Assembly: GCA_039545335.1 (NCBI GenBank)
Contig: BCIN01000007.1
Span: forward strand, 496,001-560,000
Direction of reading: 5' to 3'
Origin: Kondoa subrosea
Taxonomy: Eukaryota
DNA length: 64,000 nt
Shown: positions 602-22,679 of the stretch, piece after piece
Position numbering within the stretch: position 1 is the stretch's first letter
Layout: every line of letters starts with the position of its first letter
Position numbers and translations under genes: made by a program
Notes under the pieces: generated by a model
Told to the model about the DNA's origin: nothing
Seen by the model: the letters and a program-made list of their open reading frames with translations, nothing else
Database searches by the model: none

Positions 602-3600
602 TTATTCCAGTAGTGTACTGTAAACAATCATCAGCAGATGTGACAGAGTGCAAGGGAAGGCTAACCAGAAATTAGATGGGAAAACATTTCCGCCCCTATA
701 TAGAAGTCATTTGAGCTTCCTCCTTTGGTTTGTTCTTTCATCGAGAGCACTTACAGATGACGCCTGTTCTCGTCTAGTAATTCGCCCTGCCACCATCCAT
801 CCGGGTCCGTAGCGAAAACAGCAATCACATCATCTTCCTGGAAAGAGAATTCTTCCGGTACAGAAGCTACATAGTCGTAGATTGCTCTCACTGACAGCAT
901 GAGTGACATAAGTAGCAGTATACAACAGCAGGCTGAATCATTACTGACCAAAGAACAAAACCGGTCGGCCATTTGTGTAACCTCCAGGTGGTGCTTGAAC
1001 ACCAGTAGGCATAGCAGGTGAAGGAGCTCGCTGAACAGGCGCAGGTGATGGAGCTCGAGCTTGATGAGGTGGTTGAGAGTAATAAGGTTGCTGTTGCTGG
1101 GCTGCACCCATAGATACCACACTGGGAGAACGATAAGGCTGCTGTTGAGGTTGATTATAGTTCGACTGCTGGTAAGATGGTTGTTGGGCTTGCTGCTGAG
1201 CATAAGCTTGAGCTGGAGTTGCTGTATTTGGCGGCGCCTGAGATCCATAGCTTGGAGCACCTCTGCCATACCCAGATACGGGTCTTTGCTGCTGCTGCTG
1301 CTGCTGTTGAGGCTGCCCATAACCAGCATTCGATCCGTACTCGTTCATACCGGCAGGTGTACTCGACCTTTGCTGGTTTTGCTGATACAAAGAGTTTGGC
1401 CTTTGTTGGGCTAATGACTGCGTAGATTGAGCTGAGGCCATCGCAGGTGGTTGACCATACTGAGGTTGAGCATATTGGTGTTGAGAAGGTGCAGGTGAAA
1501 CAGGTCTAGCGGCATAATTCGAATGCACAGATTGCGGTCTAGGAGAAGTGGCTCGAGGAGGTGCTTGAAATTGCTGTTGTTGCTGATGCTGAGAAGATTG
1601 CTGATATTGATTGTATGAGGGCTGCCCATAAGTGGCTGGTTGATTATTCCCATAAGGCACTGGACTTGGACTTCTGACCGGTTGTCCATAGCCTTGTTGC
1701 GAGACAGCGCTAGTCGTTCTGGCTCTCGGGTCGCCATTAACAGGAGGATGAAAGCTTTGCTGAGAGACTGGTCGAGCTAATCTCTGTTCCCCGGGCATAG
1801 CTTGACCATAGTTCTGAACAGCTGAATCTCTTGGTGGTCCAGCACTCGGATTGCGCATCATAGCAGCAACAGGAGCGGGAGAAGAAGGAGCACCACTATA
1901 TCTGTTAGTTGACGGTGCTGGCGAAGCTGGAGTTTGGAAAGATCGATGTTGGGAAGGAACAGGAGAAGAAGCTCGTCTGTAGTCTTGCTGTTGAGATGGA
2001 GCGGGCGAAGCAGCTTGTCCTCTGCCAGCATCGTACGATTGCCTATATCCAGCTGCTGGCTGCTGCTGCTGCTGACCGTAAACATCATTCGTTGTGCTTC
2101 TTCTGGGCATATCGCTTGATTGAGATGGCGCAGGAGATTGGGCATAGCTATTCCTGTTCGACTGTGTGGGTTCTTTAGACTGCATACCAGGCAACTTGAT
2201 GCCTCCATAAGGTTTCGTTCGCTCTGGCGCTTTGTTCGGATCCCGTAAATCAGCCAAAAGTGCAGCTAATTCATCTTGTTCCGTATTTTCCTTTTTGACT
2301 TCTTGAGCAGGCTTGAACACAGGAGCTGATTGTATTGGATCTGGTTCTTCAGCTCTAGGCGAAGGAACGCGTTGTGAAGCAGTGCTGTCTTTTCTTGATC
2401 GGGTTGAGCCAGCTTGATTGTTCGGCGTTGCCAATTTCCCATCGTTGACAGGCTGGGAGGGAGATTTGTAAGAGGCAGCAATAGAGCCGTTTGAATATCG
2501 ATTCACTGGCTGCTGTTCTTGCCTTGTTGGTGCTAAAGAACCTTTCGACTGTCTTCGTTCTATCGGGCCTGTAGAAGGGTTGAAGGGTGCTGGAATCTCG
2601 GTATCTGGACGATTGAGGCTAAGAGGAGAGATAGGTTGAGGTGTTTGTGAAACAGAAGAACCATTACGAGAATGACTTTTCCGCTGCTGCTCTTCGTTGT
2701 ACGCTTGAGCTATTTGTTGAGCAGGTGAAGGAGGAGCTGTTCTTGCTGTTTCAGGTGCTTCTTGGCGAGAAGCGTAGGGATCTGGATTAGGCGTGGCAGA
2801 ATGAGGTGCGCTAGAGTAAGGTGCTTCTGCGGTCAAAGAGCGAGTAGAAGGAGGTCTTGAGTGCGATCTACCACTAGTAGACTGAGCAGATTGTGAGCCT
2901 TGTCGGCCTCGAGAAGGTGGGTGTTCATTATTGGGTGTAACGGCCTGCGAGGGAGGTTGAGATTGAGGCATTTGTTGACCTGGTTTTAGCGCATTCGCTA
3001 GATCTTGTAGGGCTTGACCAGTACTGATGATCTCAGTCTTTGCTGAACTTCGAGCGAAAGAAGCAGTGCGATAAGTTGCTTTCCTGTTATCCCCATGATC
3101 GCCTCTCTCGTAGTTGACAAAGGCAGGAACATCTGTCAGAAAAAGACACCCGAAGAATCAGCACGAGCTAAATCCCGCAGCAATCGTCTGACCAAAGATC
3201 TTTGCTCCAGTGCCTCGCTCATTTGCAAATTGTCTGAGATCGGCGGGTGCATTACAAGTTTCAAGCACTCTTCGAACATTCTCACATGACTGTACAAGAC
3301 CCAAATACTCTATGAGCAAGAAGCAGACACAGATATCAGTCCACGTACCTCATCATCCGTAACGCAAATTAAACTAGCACCATTGGCATAATCCCATAAA
3401 CTGATTCGCATATAGTTCAAGCGTTCTTCTTCCAGATCTTGAGCTAGATCACAGAAGGACTTCCATTCAAGATTCCATTTGCTGTACGTCATGAATCTTA
3501 CGAATCAACACCGAAGACTGTTTCGTAAGAAGTATTGGCGTACGTATTTGTCTCTTTTAGAGCATGGGAGAAGACTTCGTACTCCTTCTTGTTCACTTGA

Positions 3601-4473
3601 ACAGTCTGGTTGGCTTTATCCAGCTTTGCGGAGACCTAATCCATGTTTTTAAGGATGCATTGAATTCCTAAGAAATTGATTTCACCTTGTCTAGATCGCG
3701 ACCTTGTGTCAAACTAGTCTGCGCTGTCAGACCATTGATTGAAACACAATCGGTCTTGTACTTCTCCTTTGCCTGTATCTCATATTAGTCAATGGCTTTA
3801 AACAGCCAAAGTAGCCCACTTTCGCCGCAAGTCGTTCTTGATCCAGCTTAGCTCTATAAAGCTTCTCAATAGAGCCTTGATGCTGTAGGACATCCAAGTG
3901 TCATCAGTAGACCATTCTACCGATGCGCAGCATGCCTACATTTGCTTTTTTCCCATCTCGAACGGTTTGGAACTCTCTTGTCCTGTTCTCTAATGCTGTG
4001 CGAAACATACTAGAGCAATATCTAAGCATATGTAGATGTATGGAGCAGGTGACGAACATGCCCAGCTTATCGTGTGCATCTGCAGTATTGGCGACTTCCA
4101 TTCTTACGCGATCCAAAGCGAGCCGCATAGAGCTGTCAAGTGAAGTGAATCAGTAAAGATGCATGCTTCTACTGAGTCCCGTAGCTGACCCAGACTCTTC
4201 TCTGCCCAAGTATTGCCTTGACAGTTTGGATAACTTCTTCGCATAGTCCTCCTCAATTGCAGCTCGACTGTTATAGAACCCTCTGAGATCCTCCAAAGTC
4301 TTGCTCCCGTTCTTCAATCTGATCATCAAAGCCTCATAGCCAGCGCCTTGAACGTCCCAGAACGAATTGCAGAAGTCATTCGGGTCTGCATCCATTGAGG
4401 ATTGCAGACCAGGGCCATTGCTACGTTGATCTGATTGCGAGCCTCTACGTGAGCTTGAAGGCCGCCTCTCCAT
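602..4473 (-). CDS. HOF1: F-BAR (PCH) / SH3 cytokinesis protein, Cdc15/Hof1/Imp2 family
   Basis: N-terminal FCH motif (FCNSFWD..GAGYEALMIRLKNG..RAAIEEDYAKKLSKL), F-BAR helices (QDLEEERLNYMR..LWDYAN), long P/Q/S-rich linker, C-terminal SH3 (VRAIYDY..EEFSFQEDDVIAV..DGWWQGE..GNVFPSNF); multiple introns. Confidence 0.85.
1286..1308 (-). repeat. CAG/CAA run encoding poly-Gln in the Hof1 linker
   Basis: ttgctgctgctgctgctgctgttg on + strand. Confidence 0.7.
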
Positions 4474-4669
4474 GCTTCAAGACAGGTATAAAAGGCTAGA
4501 TGATATATTCAGCACTCGGTTGTTGTTTGGCAAGAACGACTTCGCAAGTTGGTGGTCAACGTTAGGCTGCCACTAGATGATACTAGATGATTCCCATTGT
4601 GGAGCTATGTAGAGCAGCCCTGCTGCTGCTGTCTGTGATCAAATAGTCCTTTGAGTTCCCTTTCTCCTA

Positions 4670-16315: not shown

Positions 16316-17849
16316 ATGCAAAGCTTTCGAAGGGTTATACCCATTGCAAATGGTATACCTCGATGCTGTTATTCCACTGCTTCGCCAAAGAAAGCTCGGC
16401 GAAAGCAGCAGCAGCAGCCAAAATACAACTACAACGCGAATCCTTTTGAGCCTGTGCCAGAGGACGAAGACTCTCGCTTGTTTCCTGCTCTGACTGCGAA
16501 ACAATTATCTGTCTATACTCAACCTGCTAAACGCTATCGAGCCTTGACTAGAGACTTCATTGACGATTCACTCTATAATCCGCACTATGGCTACTTCACC
16601 CAGCAAGCAGTCATCTTTGACCTAAACAAGACTCAGGATGTAGGACAAGATCAAGGAAGTGGGTTGGATTTCAAGAGTTTGCCAAATAGCGCTGCATTGG
16701 ATCGAGAGATTGCGAAGAGATATGGAGCTTTCGAAGGCGAAGAAGGCATGCAATCAATTCCTGGAATGGGGACAGGGAAAGCGAGACAAGTTTGGCATAC
16801 GCCTACAGAGCTCTTTCAGGTCAGCTTCATCCTTCTGTTGATTCGCATTACTCATATGTCTATAGCCTTGGTACGCTCGAGCAGTAGCAAGATACCTGCT
16901 GAACGAATACCAGCTTCATCTGTCTCAAAAGGAAGATCTCATTATTTACGAGTTGGGAGCAGGAAACGGAACATTGATGCGAGGCATTCTCGACTATCTG
17001 GCAGAACATGAACCAGAAATTTATGCTCGAACCCAGTACAAGATTATCGAAATATCACCTCGCTTGGTAGAACTGCAAAAGGCTCGAGCTGGTCCTAAGC
17101 ATGCCACTCGAATCGAAGTCATACAATCTGATATCTTCGACTGGCAGCAGACTGTCTCGCAGCCCTGTTTCTTTCTTGCCTTTGAAGTGTTGGATAATCT
17201 GGCGCACGATGTAATTCGCTTTTCTCGTGATCCAGATCAACCTATTACACCTCTTCAATGCAATATCAGCGTTTCTTCGAATGGCGAATTTGTCGAGCAA
17301 TACACGCCAGTCTCTGATCCTCTTATTTTGGAATTGTTGGCTCTGCGACAAACAACTTCTCTACCTTCCCTGATGCCAAACTATCCCCCTTTTGTCCGAC
17401 GGATACTATCAACATTACCATTCAGCGCAAATATGACAGCACCAATCTTTATCCCTACCAAACTTCTCAAGCTCCTACATATTCTGAAAGATCGATTCCC
17501 CTTACATCGACTTCTCCTTTCCGATTTCTCTTCTTTACCAGATACGATTCCGGGTACGAATTCGCCAGTCGTTCAAACACGTTACAAAGGTCAAACTGTT
17601 CCCTGTACAACTTATTTAGTTTCGCAAGGTTATTTCGATATCTTCTTCCCTACCGATTTTGAAGCGCTTCGACAAATGTATGAAGCTGTTATGGGAAAGA
17701 AGAAGATGAAGTATGAAAGTCATGCGCAGTTTTTGAATAGATGGAGTGAGAAAGAGGAAACGAGGTTGAAGAACGGGGAGAATCCGATGTTGGAATATTT
17801 TGAGAATCAGGCTTTCGCTTATTCCTCTTCGATGGATGAAGATTGTTAG
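16316..17849 (+). CDS. Mitochondrial NDUFAF7/MidA-family SAM-dependent arginine methyltransferase
   Basis: RDFIDDSLYNPHYGYF, VWHTPTELF, IYELGAGNGTLM, IIEIS, FEVLDNLAHD, QGYFDIFFPTDF. Confidence 0.88.
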
Positions 17850-17970
17850 TCTATTCCTGTCCAGGCTCTGAACGATTGCTAATATCAAGGCCTAGGACGA
17901 AAACGGAATACATCGCCTCAACGAAATCGGCAAAGATGAGAAGGATGTCGCTGGTTAACCATCCTTGTCA

Positions 17971-18663
17971 ATGATGCAGTTATTGAAGCTCAGGCTGGCC
18001 CTGTCTTCTCATCTTCGCTCTCTTCCCTCTTTACGCAAACACAAGCCTGGCGCTTTAGATCTCTTCTTTCAACCTTCTCGGCCTAAACCTTCTAAATGGC
18101 ATTCTCTCGATTCTGATGGTAAACTTATCTCTTCCGATATTGCTAAATTATCGGCACTACAAGAGAGCATTCTTTTCGCAACAAGAGTTGCTGGAGCTTT
18201 CTTGACCGAACCGCCGAATAGTTCTAGAATCGCTATTGATCTGACGAATGCGTTGCATGATTTGGATCGGATTGAAGATAAAGTCAAGAGAAGACATTCG
18301 ATGAGTTATATCGTCAGCTTCTTATGCCTATTCAAAGTAAGTTTGCTGATGTGGCAGTGCAGGAATCTTCGATTCAACATCACTATTACTGCGACTCAAG
18401 TGAGTTTGAGCACATCATTTCTACTGTATTACATGTACTGATAAGCTATGTAGCCAAAGAAGAGGTCATCAAGACTTTGCGAACAGCTATTGATGACCTG
18501 ACCATGTAAGCTTCTGTCGAAGAATGCCTGTCCTTGCTAACCTTTAAATAGCTTATGCGAACAAGGCCTGATCTCTCGAGTTGATAAGCGGGTGTGTCAA
18601 GATGTAGTCGAAAGTGGAATCAAGAAATTTGATCGCATAGTAAAACGAAGGCATTCGATCTGA
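17971..18663 (+). CDS. Hypothetical protein (4 exons)
   Basis: Continuous frame after removing 3 GT-AG introns; KRRHS motif occurs twice. Confidence 0.55.
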
Positions 18664-18719: not shown

Positions 18720-19499
18720 CTAAACCTGTTCGCGGCCGATCTTGACGCTACTTCCAAGCAAATCCACCTTGATTGTACCATCACTTGCTTCATTGCCTTC
18801 TTCGTTTCCCTCTTCTGCTGGTGGACTTTCGCTGTTCCATGCATGCCAAGGGAAGGATAATTGTCTTTTCTTCAATGCTGGTTCTTCAGCGGTATCCTGA
18901 ACAGTACCTTCTCCGGCTTCTGCATCGAACTCTTTGCCTTTCCAAGGATGAGATGGTCGCCACCACTTAGCACTCACACTGTTTTCTGAACCGTCTCCTT
19001 CTTCTTCTTGTGGTGGATTCTCAGAATTCCAGGCATGCCAAGGAAAAAGGAAACCTGTTTTGAGAACAGGTAGTTCGTCAATATCTTGATCGTTGCCATC
19101 AGCTGCCCTCTTTGCGGTGAGTTGTCTGGTACTCCATGCATGCCAAGGTCTCCACCATCTGCCTCCATCACTCTCGTCGTCCGCTGATGAACCTTCCTCT
19201 TGCTCTAGCTCAAGGTTCATATCCAGTTCAATAGCTGAGCGCCCTTTCTTGACCATACCAGTAGTAGATAATAGATTGTTCTGATCACCAGCGGCTTGTT
19301 TGTGAGCAGAAACAGTTTTGACGGCGGCGAAAGATTCAAAATCTTGTTTGGCGTTGACAATTGAGATGCCGTGAGCTACTAGAGCAATAAGACAAGAGCA
19401 AATATCCATAATGAGCTCTAGAGACTTACCAGCTTTCAAGGCGTGGGCATTAATGCTGCCACAAAGTGCGAGAAGAAAGATTGAACAGAGGAAACGCAT
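18720..19499 (-). CDS. Secreted repeat-peptide precursor (KEP/RiPP-precursor-like) with PWHAW cores
   Basis: Signal peptide MRFLCSIFLLALCGSINA, 51-nt intron 19379-19429, four W-rich cores between acidic spacers, KR/KKR sites. Confidence 0.75.
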   Translation of the reverse strand: MRFLCSIFLLALCGSINAHALKAGKSLELIMDICSCLIALVAHGISIVNAKQDFESFAAVKTVSAHKQAAGDQNNLLSTTGMVKKGRSAIELDMNLELEQEEGSSADDESDGGRWWRPWHAWSTRQLTAKRAADGNDQDIDELPVLKTGFLFPWHAWNSENPPQEEEGDGSENSVSAKWWRPSHPWKGKEFDAEAGEGTVQDTAEEPALKKRQLSFPWHAWNSESPPAEEGNEEGNEASDGTIKVDLLGSSVKIGREQV

Positions 19500-19974
19500 C
19501 GTTGCGAGAATGAGCTCGAGTTTCGACCAGCGAGAAAAGGAGTGGACCAGAACAAGAGGGAAAGTCAGAAAAAAAGTGCACAAGACTGAAATTGCATGGC
19601 CTAGATTTGCCTTAAGAGACGAAACATGAATCTGTTGCCGTCTTAAGTCATCTGTCGATTGATGAGAACACGAGACGGAAGGACACTGGCCATATCGAAG
19701 AGCGTCTTGGCAGTTCGTGTGCGATTGAGAGCCTGGCGGTAGGCTCAAGAATAGAGCCTGAATATCAATTCTTTGCACGGCGAGACTAAGATTACGTAAT
19801 GCACTCGATTCGCGTCAAAATGGAGTAGTGAAGTGCTTCTGTCTGCGGTATAGGTTTGGAGTTTGCGCGAGGAAATTTGCAGATGCTTTGCTTTCTTCTT
19901 TGCATAAATTACTTATGTACATCTATGTTTCAGCAAGACTTTTGGCTCTCTTACGAACTAACATGCCTTGATAT

Positions 19975-22547
19975 CTACGCTTGAACACCTCTGCCCAATG
20001 TACCGAAAACAACGCCTTGCCCTTCGTTGATGGGTCTCCTCAGCTTGTTAGCACCTGAATCCACAAAGAATGAAGCCATGTTGGTAACATTGCTATTCCT
20101 CGTGGTTTGGTCATACTGTCAAAGCGGTGAGATACAATCATCTGGGCACATTTCAAAAGCTCACGAAGCCGTAGTAATTCGCTTGTACTTGCTGAGGCGT
20201 AATGGACAACTCGAAGTAGCCTCGAAGTTGGCCTTCAGCTGGTAATCACACGAGGTACAATCAGCACGGTACTTGAGACATAACAAAGGAAAGAAAGTAA
20301 AGTCACCGTATTGCAGGGCAGGTGTAGCTAGAAGAAAACATCAGTATCATCCAGAACAAAATCGTAAGCAAAGCTCTTGCCTTGTACAAGACCAGCAGAG
20401 TAATTGCGATAGAACGTATCGGTATTCGTATAGGAATATGATGATGGACTGCTGACAGCCGAGCCGGCGAATTCGACAGCTAGAGAGCCTTCTCCGGTCA
20501 CTGGATTGTAGTTTGTAGCGTTTTCCCTGACAGTGTCGTAGACCCAGCTACAGACACAGGTCATCAGATGATGTTAAAGTGTGCAAAGGTAGAATCATTT
20601 ACGTAGCATGTGAATCGCCTGACGTGATGATGGTATTGTTGATATTGTTCTTCTCAATATAGCTGAGAATACTGTCTCGTTGAGCACCATAGCCGGACCA
20701 GGCATCAGCATTGATACTGGTAGCTCCTTTCGACACAATCGAATAGTTGGTGTTGCCGAAAACTACTTGTTGCATCTATAATGTGATTATTAGCATGCCT
20801 TAAGGGTACGTAAGTACAGAGCTTACAAGTATTCGCCAGACAGCGCCTCGTTCTTGACTCTGTTCGAGCTCATTGAAGAGAAAGTTCTGCTGCTTCTTGC
20901 CAGTCATTGAGCGGTCCTTGTCGTCTTTGAATACCATAAGCATAAAGCCCTGATTCGACCAGTCTACACACACCCTTTTCCGCGACAATTTTTTCTGTGT
21001 TGTAATAAAGATCGGTTACAGAGCGATTGTAATTTCTAGTATCAAGCATCACCATGTCGAATAGCTTGCCAATCTTGAAGGATCTCCAGATACGAAGCTT
21101 GTCATCCGTCTGAATCTGGCGGATAGGCATCCACTCTAAAGTAATATGGCGTGGGACAATTTCGAATTGTTAGAAGTGAACATACCATAGTATGCTCGGA
21201 CGGCATTCGCTTTTCTTTCGGTGAATTGGTAACCACCTACTTGACCTTGAATAGTGTCATTGCTATCAGCCGTACCGAACTATTAGGTTTATCAGCTAGA
21301 CCCTGCAATCAAGCCAGACAACACACTGCCCAAGAATTCTGTTTGCACATTCATGATGAGCTAGTCACCACTGGAAGCTGAAAAGCGACGTACATCGGCG
21401 ACTTCATGATCGTCCCAGACTTCAGAGAGAATTATAGACTCAGTATCGGAAGAGAATCATTGGTAATATGAAACACCTGTTTGCCAAGCAAGCTTCTGGT
21501 GCAATGCTCTATATCGACAGTTTAGTCACGAAGCATCTCAAGTAATGCGACACTTACTGGAGATCTGGATCGGCTCTATAAGAAGCGTATCGGTCCCGAT
21601 AATCTTGAAGTGAAGCAACTTCGCGCAAAGGCAGAGAATAGCGGCCAAGCGTTGCTCCGCTTCCATATGCACCATCTGCGTACTCGTAGACTGGAAAACT
21701 ATTAGTCAGGAAGCCAACGGGAAAGGTTCTCGCCTACTGTAGTCTCCGAGCTGTGACTGTTCAGCTTGGCATTCGCAGGAGTCTGGTAAACGCTTACGTG
21801 CTGCACATAATCTAAATCTTCTGAATGGTTCGCTGCAGACCCGTAGGCATTGAAATATCCGAAGGGCTTGTTAGCACAAGAGAAGACAGCCAAGTTGATC
21901 TTTTCAGGCATAGAATCAGGCTAGATAGACTTATCAAACTAGAAGTGGAAAACCAGTGATTGACATACTTCTGGTAATGTCTTGAAGGTGCCCATCATAG
22001 ACGCACCAAGCTCGGCGCCAGAGCAACTCTGGAACATGTAATTGTATTTCGTGTACGGCTCCAGGCCTTTGACTTCCACCTTGACAGACCAACCAATCTC
22101 GTAGGAAGTATGCGCCTGACCAGAAGTGACAAGGGAGGATTTGTTGAAATCTTCAGACTTCGATACCATGTAGTCCAAACATATTGGTGGATAGTCGTTC
22201 CCGCCATACAACCCCGCCAAGTCCAGCTTCTGAGGAAGAGTCCATAGGATAACAGACTAGATGACTTTGATGAGATCCACGCGGGTAAGTAGAAGATACT
22301 CCCGTACATCGTCATATGGGTCACCACTTGCTACTCCATAGGGAAACGTCAGATTTCCAGTGTAATATTGACTCCCACCATTGTTCCTCTTGCGTAGATT
22401 GGAGTGTACTTGATCTAGAGGGACTTCCAATGCACGAATATTCAACGAAGGAGATTTGTAAGCCAAATTCGATTCAAAGATTGAAGGATTGGCGGATGGA
22501 GCAGCAATGCTAGCTCCAGCAAGCAGTAGCAGTGACAGTATCTGCAT
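19975..22547 (-). CDS. Secreted alkaline phosphatase D (PhoD family)
   Basis: Signal peptide, FPYGVASGDPY, LAVFSC, HLGDYIYEY, VWDDHEVAD, MLDTR, DAWSGY, SGDSH, VEFAGSAVSS; many introns. Confidence 0.92.
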
Positions 22548-22679
22548 GATTGTATGGTATAGAAGGAAGATTATTGGCCCTGACAAGCATTAGATTCGGC
22601 ACGTTCGGCATTTAATGAAGCGGATCAACAAATGCATAAAACGTGAACAAGAGGGAAACGTTTGTATATGTAATGGCAG

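Follow-up and report, generated by a model that had tools for sequence, protein, structure and literature searches.

One important question raised by contig BCIN01000007.1 of Kondoa subrosea (assembly GCA_039545335.1) is whether a small gene with repeated Trp/His motifs, located on the minus strand at 18720-19499 of a 64,000-nt stretch of this contig (positions 496,001 to 560,000, hereafter the window), encodes a precursor from which short peptides are cut, or a secreted protein that acts whole or in large pieces. A preliminary description of the locus had favoured the precursor. In the reading that best explains the evidence, and to which we give about an even chance, the product would be a lineage-specific, secreted and disordered protein with P-x-H-x-W motifs as binding elements, possibly after coarse cleavage by Kex2. 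On this reading the gene encodes neither a classical multi-core Kex2 peptide precursor nor a precursor of RiPPs, peptides that are made by the ribosome and modified after translation. It belongs to a broad and already known kind, the fungal secreted repeat proteins.

Coding status and repeat structure of the gene

The frame is open on the minus strand for 364 codons from stop to stop (18720-19814), and the chance expectation for a frame of this length in the window is ~7e-6. Without splicing the open reading frame (ORF) comprises 259 codons; removal of a predicted in-frame intron of 51 nt leaves 242 residues. Coding potential was assessed by codon log-odds, with 13 Pfam-supported ORF pieces of the same window as the training set. 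The frame of exon 2 scored 0.235 bits/codon, as compared with 0.05-0.28 for the 13 training ORFs, which means that its codon usage is like that of the neighbouring genes. All four segments of the gene scored positive and the remaining five frames over exon 2 scored negative, and the open stretch located 5' of the ATG proved to be non-coding (0.001 bits/codon). The gene was single-copy at a likeness of at least 80% in the ~18.8-Mb contig sets (two DNA contig sets from one sample, possibly the one from which the window comes), each of which contained one identical contig with the gene and zero variants.

Four aromatic cores were found in the translation at the places given in the preliminary description, whose coordinates correspond to the inner parts of the full cores (Table 1). 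They belong to two types, two cationic WWRP-x-H-x-W motifs (A) and two FPWHAWNSE-x-PP motifs (B), and are arranged in the order A-B-A-B. A six-frame scan of the window detected three copies of PWHAW and two of WWRP, every one of them inside this gene. The pattern P-x-H-x-W is common to the four cores, and at least two copies of it appeared in only 0.0001 of 20,000 residue shuffles, as against the four copies observed. One further candidate, PWHNWNS at 62611-62625 (minus strand), differs by one residue from the PWHAWNS of the B cores; it lies in a 46-codon frame antisense to an ORF of the plus strand, with a coding score of -0.187, and was attributed to chance.

The A and B motifs recur at an exact period of 64 codons (192 nt), and the two units so defined were aligned by BLASTP with an E value of 7e-18 and 48% identity. 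Tandem Repeats Finder, run on the DNA, did not detect the 192-nt period and reported only a 12-nt, 2.3-copy array at 18788-18815. The period is thus visible in the protein and not in the DNA, indicating that the duplication is old. Comparison of unit 1 with unit 2 revealed that 18 of the 24 core residues are identical, with proportions of synonymous (pS) and nonsynonymous (pN) differences of 0.90 and 0.20, respectively, whereas 13 of the 39 spacer residues are identical (pS 0.80, pN 0.40). One serine is encoded by TCT in one unit and by AGC in the other. With saturation at the synonymous sites and conservation of the motifs, the peptide sequence must have been kept for a long time. The values point to strong purifying selection on the cores and to weaker selection on the spacers, and the expectation that the repeated cores would be better conserved than the spacers (pN 0.20 vs 0.40) was confirmed between the two units. 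Given that the spacers are constrained at all, a protein acting as a whole fits somewhat better than a precursor consisting purely of cores and junk.

That the gene is real and under selection can be stated with high confidence. A young or decaying ORF without present function would agree with the lack of a Pfam family and of any homologue in the searches described below; this explanation is nevertheless very unlikely in view of the gene-like codon usage in this frame only, the synonymous saturation with motifs conserved between the units, and the intact frame, whose first ATG stands directly at the predicted signal peptide.

The dibasic sites and the proposed release of the cores

Precursors of alpha-factor-type pheromones, of repeat proteins that are processed by Kex2 (KEPs) and of dikaritins had been proposed as the architecture of this protein on the basis of its signal peptide, repeated cores and KR sites. 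The basic sites invoked, namely KKGR, AKR and KKR followed by Gln, are all present in the translation, where the dibasic positions are KK84, KR130 and KKR210-212. The two [KR]R sites are not enriched with respect to residue shuffling (P 0.17; P 0.15 for any dibasic site). In the alignment of the units AKR is placed opposite 'AE-' and LKKR opposite 'LKTG', so that the Kex2 sites are out of register; standing at non-homologous places, they form no part of the repeat. The protein has no dibasic site in the stretch from B1 to A2, nor one immediately behind any of the cores, and in the absence of a site between B1 and A2 the short cores would not be releasable by Kex2.

Cleavage in silico at the KR sites gave fragments of 44, 81 and 47 aa with net charges of -5, -10 and -6, respectively. 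The bare A cores have net charges of +3 and +4. Because the KR-bounded fragments are large and anionic, Kex2 alone would not yield cationic peptides of the indolicidin type, and the proposed release of a cationic WWRP..W peptide class by KR cleavage was not supported. None of these fragments is a short, net-cationic peptide of the sort expected of a Trp-rich antimicrobial; indolicidin and tritrpticin are Trp-rich peptides that act on membranes.

Two rules for the recognition of KEPs have been published. Under the first one, cuts at every KR/RR, or alternatively at every KK, have to give four or more fragments, and three or more of the fragments must share a common pattern (PMC6339444); under the second one, a protein needs three or more tandem repeats, each 8 aa or longer and situated between KR/KK/RK/RR sites (PMC7329392). 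With two [KR]R sites and three fragments, the protein fails both. The two KR sites give three fragments, as do the two KK sites, and the repeat consists of two 64-aa units that are not separated by a dibasic site between B1 and A2. Every one of the three KR fragments contains at least one P-x-H-x-W core; taken whole, the fragments are mutually unlike, and the C-terminal one is excluded by the published pipeline. The core motifs gave no match in the KEP supplementary tables (3 + 4 text files, the long ones maybe incomplete), and a full-text literature search on the motif strings retrieved no paper on such a peptide. The PWHAW of the literature is a haemophilia abbreviation, and WWRPS occurs in papers on PW2 and on sclerostin.

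Kex2 prefers Leu at P4, Lys at P2 and Arg at P1 (PMC8528282), and the L-K-K-R site followed by Gln fits this preference. One KR is contained in each A-to-B spacer. In a KEP-like propeptide, as envisaged in the preliminary description, Kex2 would make cuts at AKR, at LKKR and perhaps in the vicinity of KKGR. Trimming by other proteases would then set free bioactive Trp/His peptides of two classes, with a role in signalling or an antimicrobial one. Two types of motif are in fact present in 77 of the 1193 published KEPs (PMC6339444), functional long Kex2 fragments are known from Rep1 of Ustilago maydis (PMC7329392), and the A cores are not only cationic but, in the case of A2, contain WWRPS like the membrane-active peptide PW2 (PMC6270265). 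The predicted signal peptide and the stronger conservation of the cores would also suit such a propeptide. Against this, the protein has just two sites, neither enriched nor in register, both KEP rules fail, its fragments are anionic, its motifs were not found in the KEP tables, and Kex2, Kex1 and Ste13 alone would free no short core. Hence, we consider this explanation unlikely. Still less probable is an undescribed class of secreted peptide precursors in basidiomycetes, of which this gene would be the founding member and in which Kex2 and a second protease would free cationic WWRP-x-H-x-W peptides together with pyroglutamyl or neutral FPWHAWNSE-x-PP peptides, perhaps Trp-His-modified or metal-binding, to serve as signals or antimicrobials. 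If the motifs were released peptides, they would constitute a new Trp/His class from the little-studied Pucciniomycotina, and current KEP detection rules would be missing precursors with few and irregular Kex2 sites.

Like the KEPs (PMC6339444, PMC7329392), the protein has a (predicted) signal peptide, short conserved repeated motifs, more variable spacers and some KR sites; it differs from them in having just two 64-aa units, two KR sites that do not bound the motifs, and anionic fragments of 44-81 aa in silico. Rep1 is likewise a basidiomycete secreted repeat protein from which Kex2 would give long fragments and not short hormone-like peptides. However, Rep1 yields at least eight similar products from many regular KR-bounded repeats, whereas at most three unlike fragments would arise here (PMC7329392), and an HMMER search showed no sequence similarity between the two. 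With the K2PP effectors (PMC8528282) the protein would share secretion and an acidic, disordered N-terminal sequence that precedes a canonical site of the L-x-K-R type, but those effectors release a folded C-terminal domain, and the part that follows LKKR in this protein is 47 aa long, acidic and without a predicted fold.

A RiPP precursor, in which enzymes with genes at other places in the genome would cross-link the W/H cores or tailor them in some other way, is extremely unlikely. Trp, His and Pro abound in the short, conserved cores, and the Gln that follows KKR could form pyroglutamate; a signal peptide and repeated cores are also found in dikaritin (ustiloxin class) precursors. Unlike these, the protein has no KR bounding each core and no Tyr in its cores. 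The cross-links of known dikaritins use Tyr, and the mature part of this protein contains neither Tyr nor Cys. Its spacers are constrained as well (pN 0.40 vs pS 0.80). No DUF3328 (UstYa), P450, tyrosinase or other tailoring family, and no protease family, was found by the Pfam scan of the 30 + 59 ORF translations of the 64-kb window, from which small split exons could escape. This agrees with the preliminary description as regards the lack of DUF3328, P450 and tyrosinase. Its suggestion of cross-linking or metal binding at the Trp and His residues is speculation.

Predicted secretion and the 51-nt intron

The N-terminus of the protein consists of a basic n-region (Met-Arg) and an 11-residue hydrophobic core, with A-H-A preceding position 21. 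It was read as a signal peptide by inspection and with the -3/-1 rule, which is established for signal-peptide cleavage. The C-terminal tail is not hydrophobic. These features suggest that the protein is secreted. The gene had been described as encoding a secreted protein of ~240 aa after one intron; the signal-peptide-like start is indeed present and the length is 242 residues if the transcript is spliced, with both the intron and the cleavage standing as predictions.

The predicted intron segment is in frame and stop-free, with an alternative acceptor 3 nt further on; consequently, the spliced and the unspliced frames are both open. For comparison, the intron of the NDUFAF7 gene (46 nt, 16820-16865, plus strand) was fixed by homology to five relatives; its branch site is of the CTCAT type and its acceptor is TAG. 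Frame-joining intron candidates in the Aldedh, KARI and PhoD genes measure 51-58 nt, with GTAAGT, GTAAGC or GTACGG as donors. The 51-nt intron fits the pattern of these neighbouring introns. The NDUFAF7 intron itself is unusual in its donor, GTCAGC, and is only 46 nt long.

In the unspliced form a cleaved signal or a signal anchor would be followed by a second hydrophobic segment, and the protein would be membrane-anchored, with the W-motif domain possibly in the cytosol. The retained segment together with the next residues does constitute a second hydrophobic stretch (11-residue windows of 1.8-2.3), and the window shows no enrichment of GTAAGT (15 per strand vs ~18 expected), which, like the open frame of the segment, weighs against the predicted intron. 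On the other hand, the GTAAGT donor, the length of 51 nt, the CTCAT-like branch site and the YAG acceptor all match the neighbouring introns, and the stretch of exon 1 plus intron codes at about zero (0.017). The anchored form is accordingly judged improbable, and splicing of the 51-nt segment likely, at roughly two chances in three.

A probably disordered acidic protein with putative binding motifs

The part encoded by exon 2 (218 aa) has a net charge of -18, with 40 Asp+Glu against 22 Lys+Arg, in accordance with the strongly acidic spacers noted in the preliminary description. It contains 11 Trp, 6 His and 11 Pro residues, and no Cys, Tyr or N-glycosylation sequon. The grand average of hydropathy was -0.93, and the mean hydropathy (0.397) was below the Uversky boundary (0.443), that is, on the disordered side. 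The mature protein would therefore be ~220 aa long and strongly acidic, and it is probably intrinsically disordered.

In the mechanism proposed here, an old internal duplication would have given rise to the two 64-residue units, each with one cationic WWRP-x-H-x-W and one FPWHAWNSE-x-PP motif. The protein would act either uncut or, once Kex2 has cleaved it at LKKR and perhaps at AKR, in the form of two or three large acidic pieces. The Trp/His motifs would be short 'stickers' that bind a hydrophobic or aromatic-loving target, for instance a polymer of the cell wall, the interface of a membrane or a partner protein, and the acidic spacers may provide solubility and shield the cationic A motifs.

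PW2, HPLKQYWWRPSI, a WWR-containing peptide obtained by phage display, docks on micelles through its aromatic stretch (PMC6270265). The A cores are, like PW2, cationic and rich in Trp, Pro and Arg, and A2 has WWRPS in common with it, whereas they lie inside an acidic protein and have no cleavage sites at their flanks. By this resemblance, binding of the motifs to membranes is plausible; the presence of WWRPS in sclerostin papers as well indicates that the five-residue identity is not homology. Core A1 (19131-19160) has the spacing W-x-x-W-x-x-W of the Trp ladder of the thrombospondin type-1 repeat (TSR). The best match in the PDB was a chain of UNC5D that contains a TSR, at a non-significant E value of 0.24, and is explained by this spacing only. 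Taken together with the zero cysteines of the protein, this indicates that the core is not a TSR.

Several points weigh against the disordered binding protein proposed here. The binding role of the motifs is argued by analogy and their target is a guess. Selection was deduced from the two internal units only. A single-sequence AlphaFold2 model was uninformative, with a mean predicted local distance difference test score (pLDDT) of 34.4 and 218 of 218 residues below 50, and was not counted as evidence of disorder. The presence of a KR in every A-to-B spacer and of L-K-K-R followed by Gln, a textbook Kex2 site, makes processing into peptides possible, with further trimming by other proteases. 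Finally, if the intron were retained, the second hydrophobic stretch (windows of ~2.2-2.3) could anchor the protein in the membrane and so alter its topology.

If, as is more likely, the protein acts through its motifs, the gene encodes one more lineage-specific, secreted and disordered repeat protein. Its value would then be that of a clean case in which purifying selection at the level of motifs is visible inside a single orphan gene, and that of a candidate surface or interaction factor.

Similarity searches and host lineage

The protein matched no Pfam family at E values up to 10. A word-seeded protein search returned 176 word-sharing candidates and none at E ≤ 0.01, and the ESM Atlas gave no usable match. 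The lone match of HMMER among 1.84 billion representative proteins (E 1.6e-4) was a repetitive, bacterial-looking protein of 4682 aa with no common motif, and was judged spurious. Homologues with conserved cores were sought in the JGI metagenomes by a motif and tblastn scan with the two-unit alignment. Among 110 pattern matches, three loci were tblastn-positive. Each of them falls in an off-frame of a long ORF, on a bacterial-looking contig of high GC content, and was attributed to chance. No Rfam match was obtained in the window.

The piece of NDUFAF7 encoded in the window was 56-59% identical to its nearest relatives overall; among named relatives Mixia came first (50%), followed by Rhodotorula, Phenoliferia and Sporobolomyces, all of the Pucciniomycotina. 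Judged by these sequences, the host looks like a basidiomycete (Pucciniomycotina-like) fungus of an isolated and sparsely sampled lineage. Since even its housekeeping proteins are only 50-59% identical to those of relatives, homologues of a secreted protein that is disordered would be expected to go unnoticed. The best reading is that the gene is lineage-specific, with its orphan status taken as weak evidence. The isolation of the lineage is also apparent from a 738-codon ORF (944-3157, minus strand) without a Pfam family, located downstream of an F-BAR (FCH) exon (4153-4476, minus strand): 5.8 billion clusters yielded just one homologue for it, a weak one (39% identity, covering 17% of the query).

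Table 1. Features of the gene in the window (all on the minus strand; exon boundaries, signal peptide and cleavage sites are predictions or candidates)
Feature	Position	Strand	Basis
Exon 1 (predicted), with signal-peptide-like N-terminus; ATG at 19499-19497	19430..19499	-	First in-frame ATG of the 364-codon frame; A at -3
Predicted signal peptide, residues 1-20 (MR, hydrophobic core, A-H-A)	19440..19499	-	Sequence and hydropathy windows; -3/-1 rule
Predicted in-frame intron, 51 nt, phase 1, GTAAGT...CTCAT...CTCTAG	19379..19429	-	Sequence; introns of neighbouring genes
Exon 2, including TAG stop (18720-18722)	18720..19378	-	Coding score 0.235 bits/codon
KKGR, KK pair then Gly at P2 before Arg; non-canonical Kex2 site	19239..19250	-	Translation; Kex2 preferences per PMC8528282
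Repeat unit 1 of 64 codons, made up of an acidic spacer, A1, an AKR-bearing spacer and B1	19011..19202	-	64-codon period, unit alignment, BLASTP
Core A1, RWWRPWHAWS, cationic	19131..19160	-	Six-frame scan, translation
AKR, dibasic candidate Kex2 site, Thr at P4 (non-aliphatic)	19107..19115	-	Translation; Kex2 preferences per PMC8528282
Core B1, FLFPWHAWNSENPP	19011..19052	-	Six-frame scan, translation
Repeat unit 2 of 64 codons, made up of an acidic spacer, A2, a spacer with LKKR at its end and B2	18819..19010	-	64-codon period, unit alignment, BLASTP
Core A2, KWWRPSHPWK, cationic	18939..18968	-	Six-frame scan, translation
KKR, Leu before (L-K-K-R) and Gln after; best candidate Kex2 site	18864..18872	-	Only aliphatic-x-x-R match in the protein
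Core B2, LSFPWHAWNSESPP	18819..18860	-	Six-frame scan, translation

Neighbouring genes

Directly upstream of the gene and on the same strand lies a multi-exon gene for a PhoD-like phosphatase (20328-22589, minus strand), which has a signal-peptide-like start; two putatively secreted proteins are thus encoded side by side. The genes located downstream are convergent and comprise NDUFAF7 (16544-17846) and ORF pieces of the plus strand that extend up to 18663. These pieces (17959-18663) have coding scores of 0.08, 0.04 and -0.003, match no Pfam family and end within 57 nt of the stop codon of the Trp/His gene. They may represent a small gene whose 3' end overlaps the 3' untranslated region of the latter. 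The other genes of the window are housekeeping genes: AsnRS-like, LSM, F-box, WD40, tRNA-intron endonuclease, SAC3, RPS4, KARI, GNAT, AAA and Sir2.

The assembly of the window contains a gap of 935 N at 54856-55790, and position 57914 is likewise an N. On the minus strand, two ORF pieces for an AAA-ATPase, located at 55974-56378 and 58608-58961 and 2.6 kb apart, are identical in 105 of 113 residues, and are either a tandem duplicate or an assembly artefact beside the gap.

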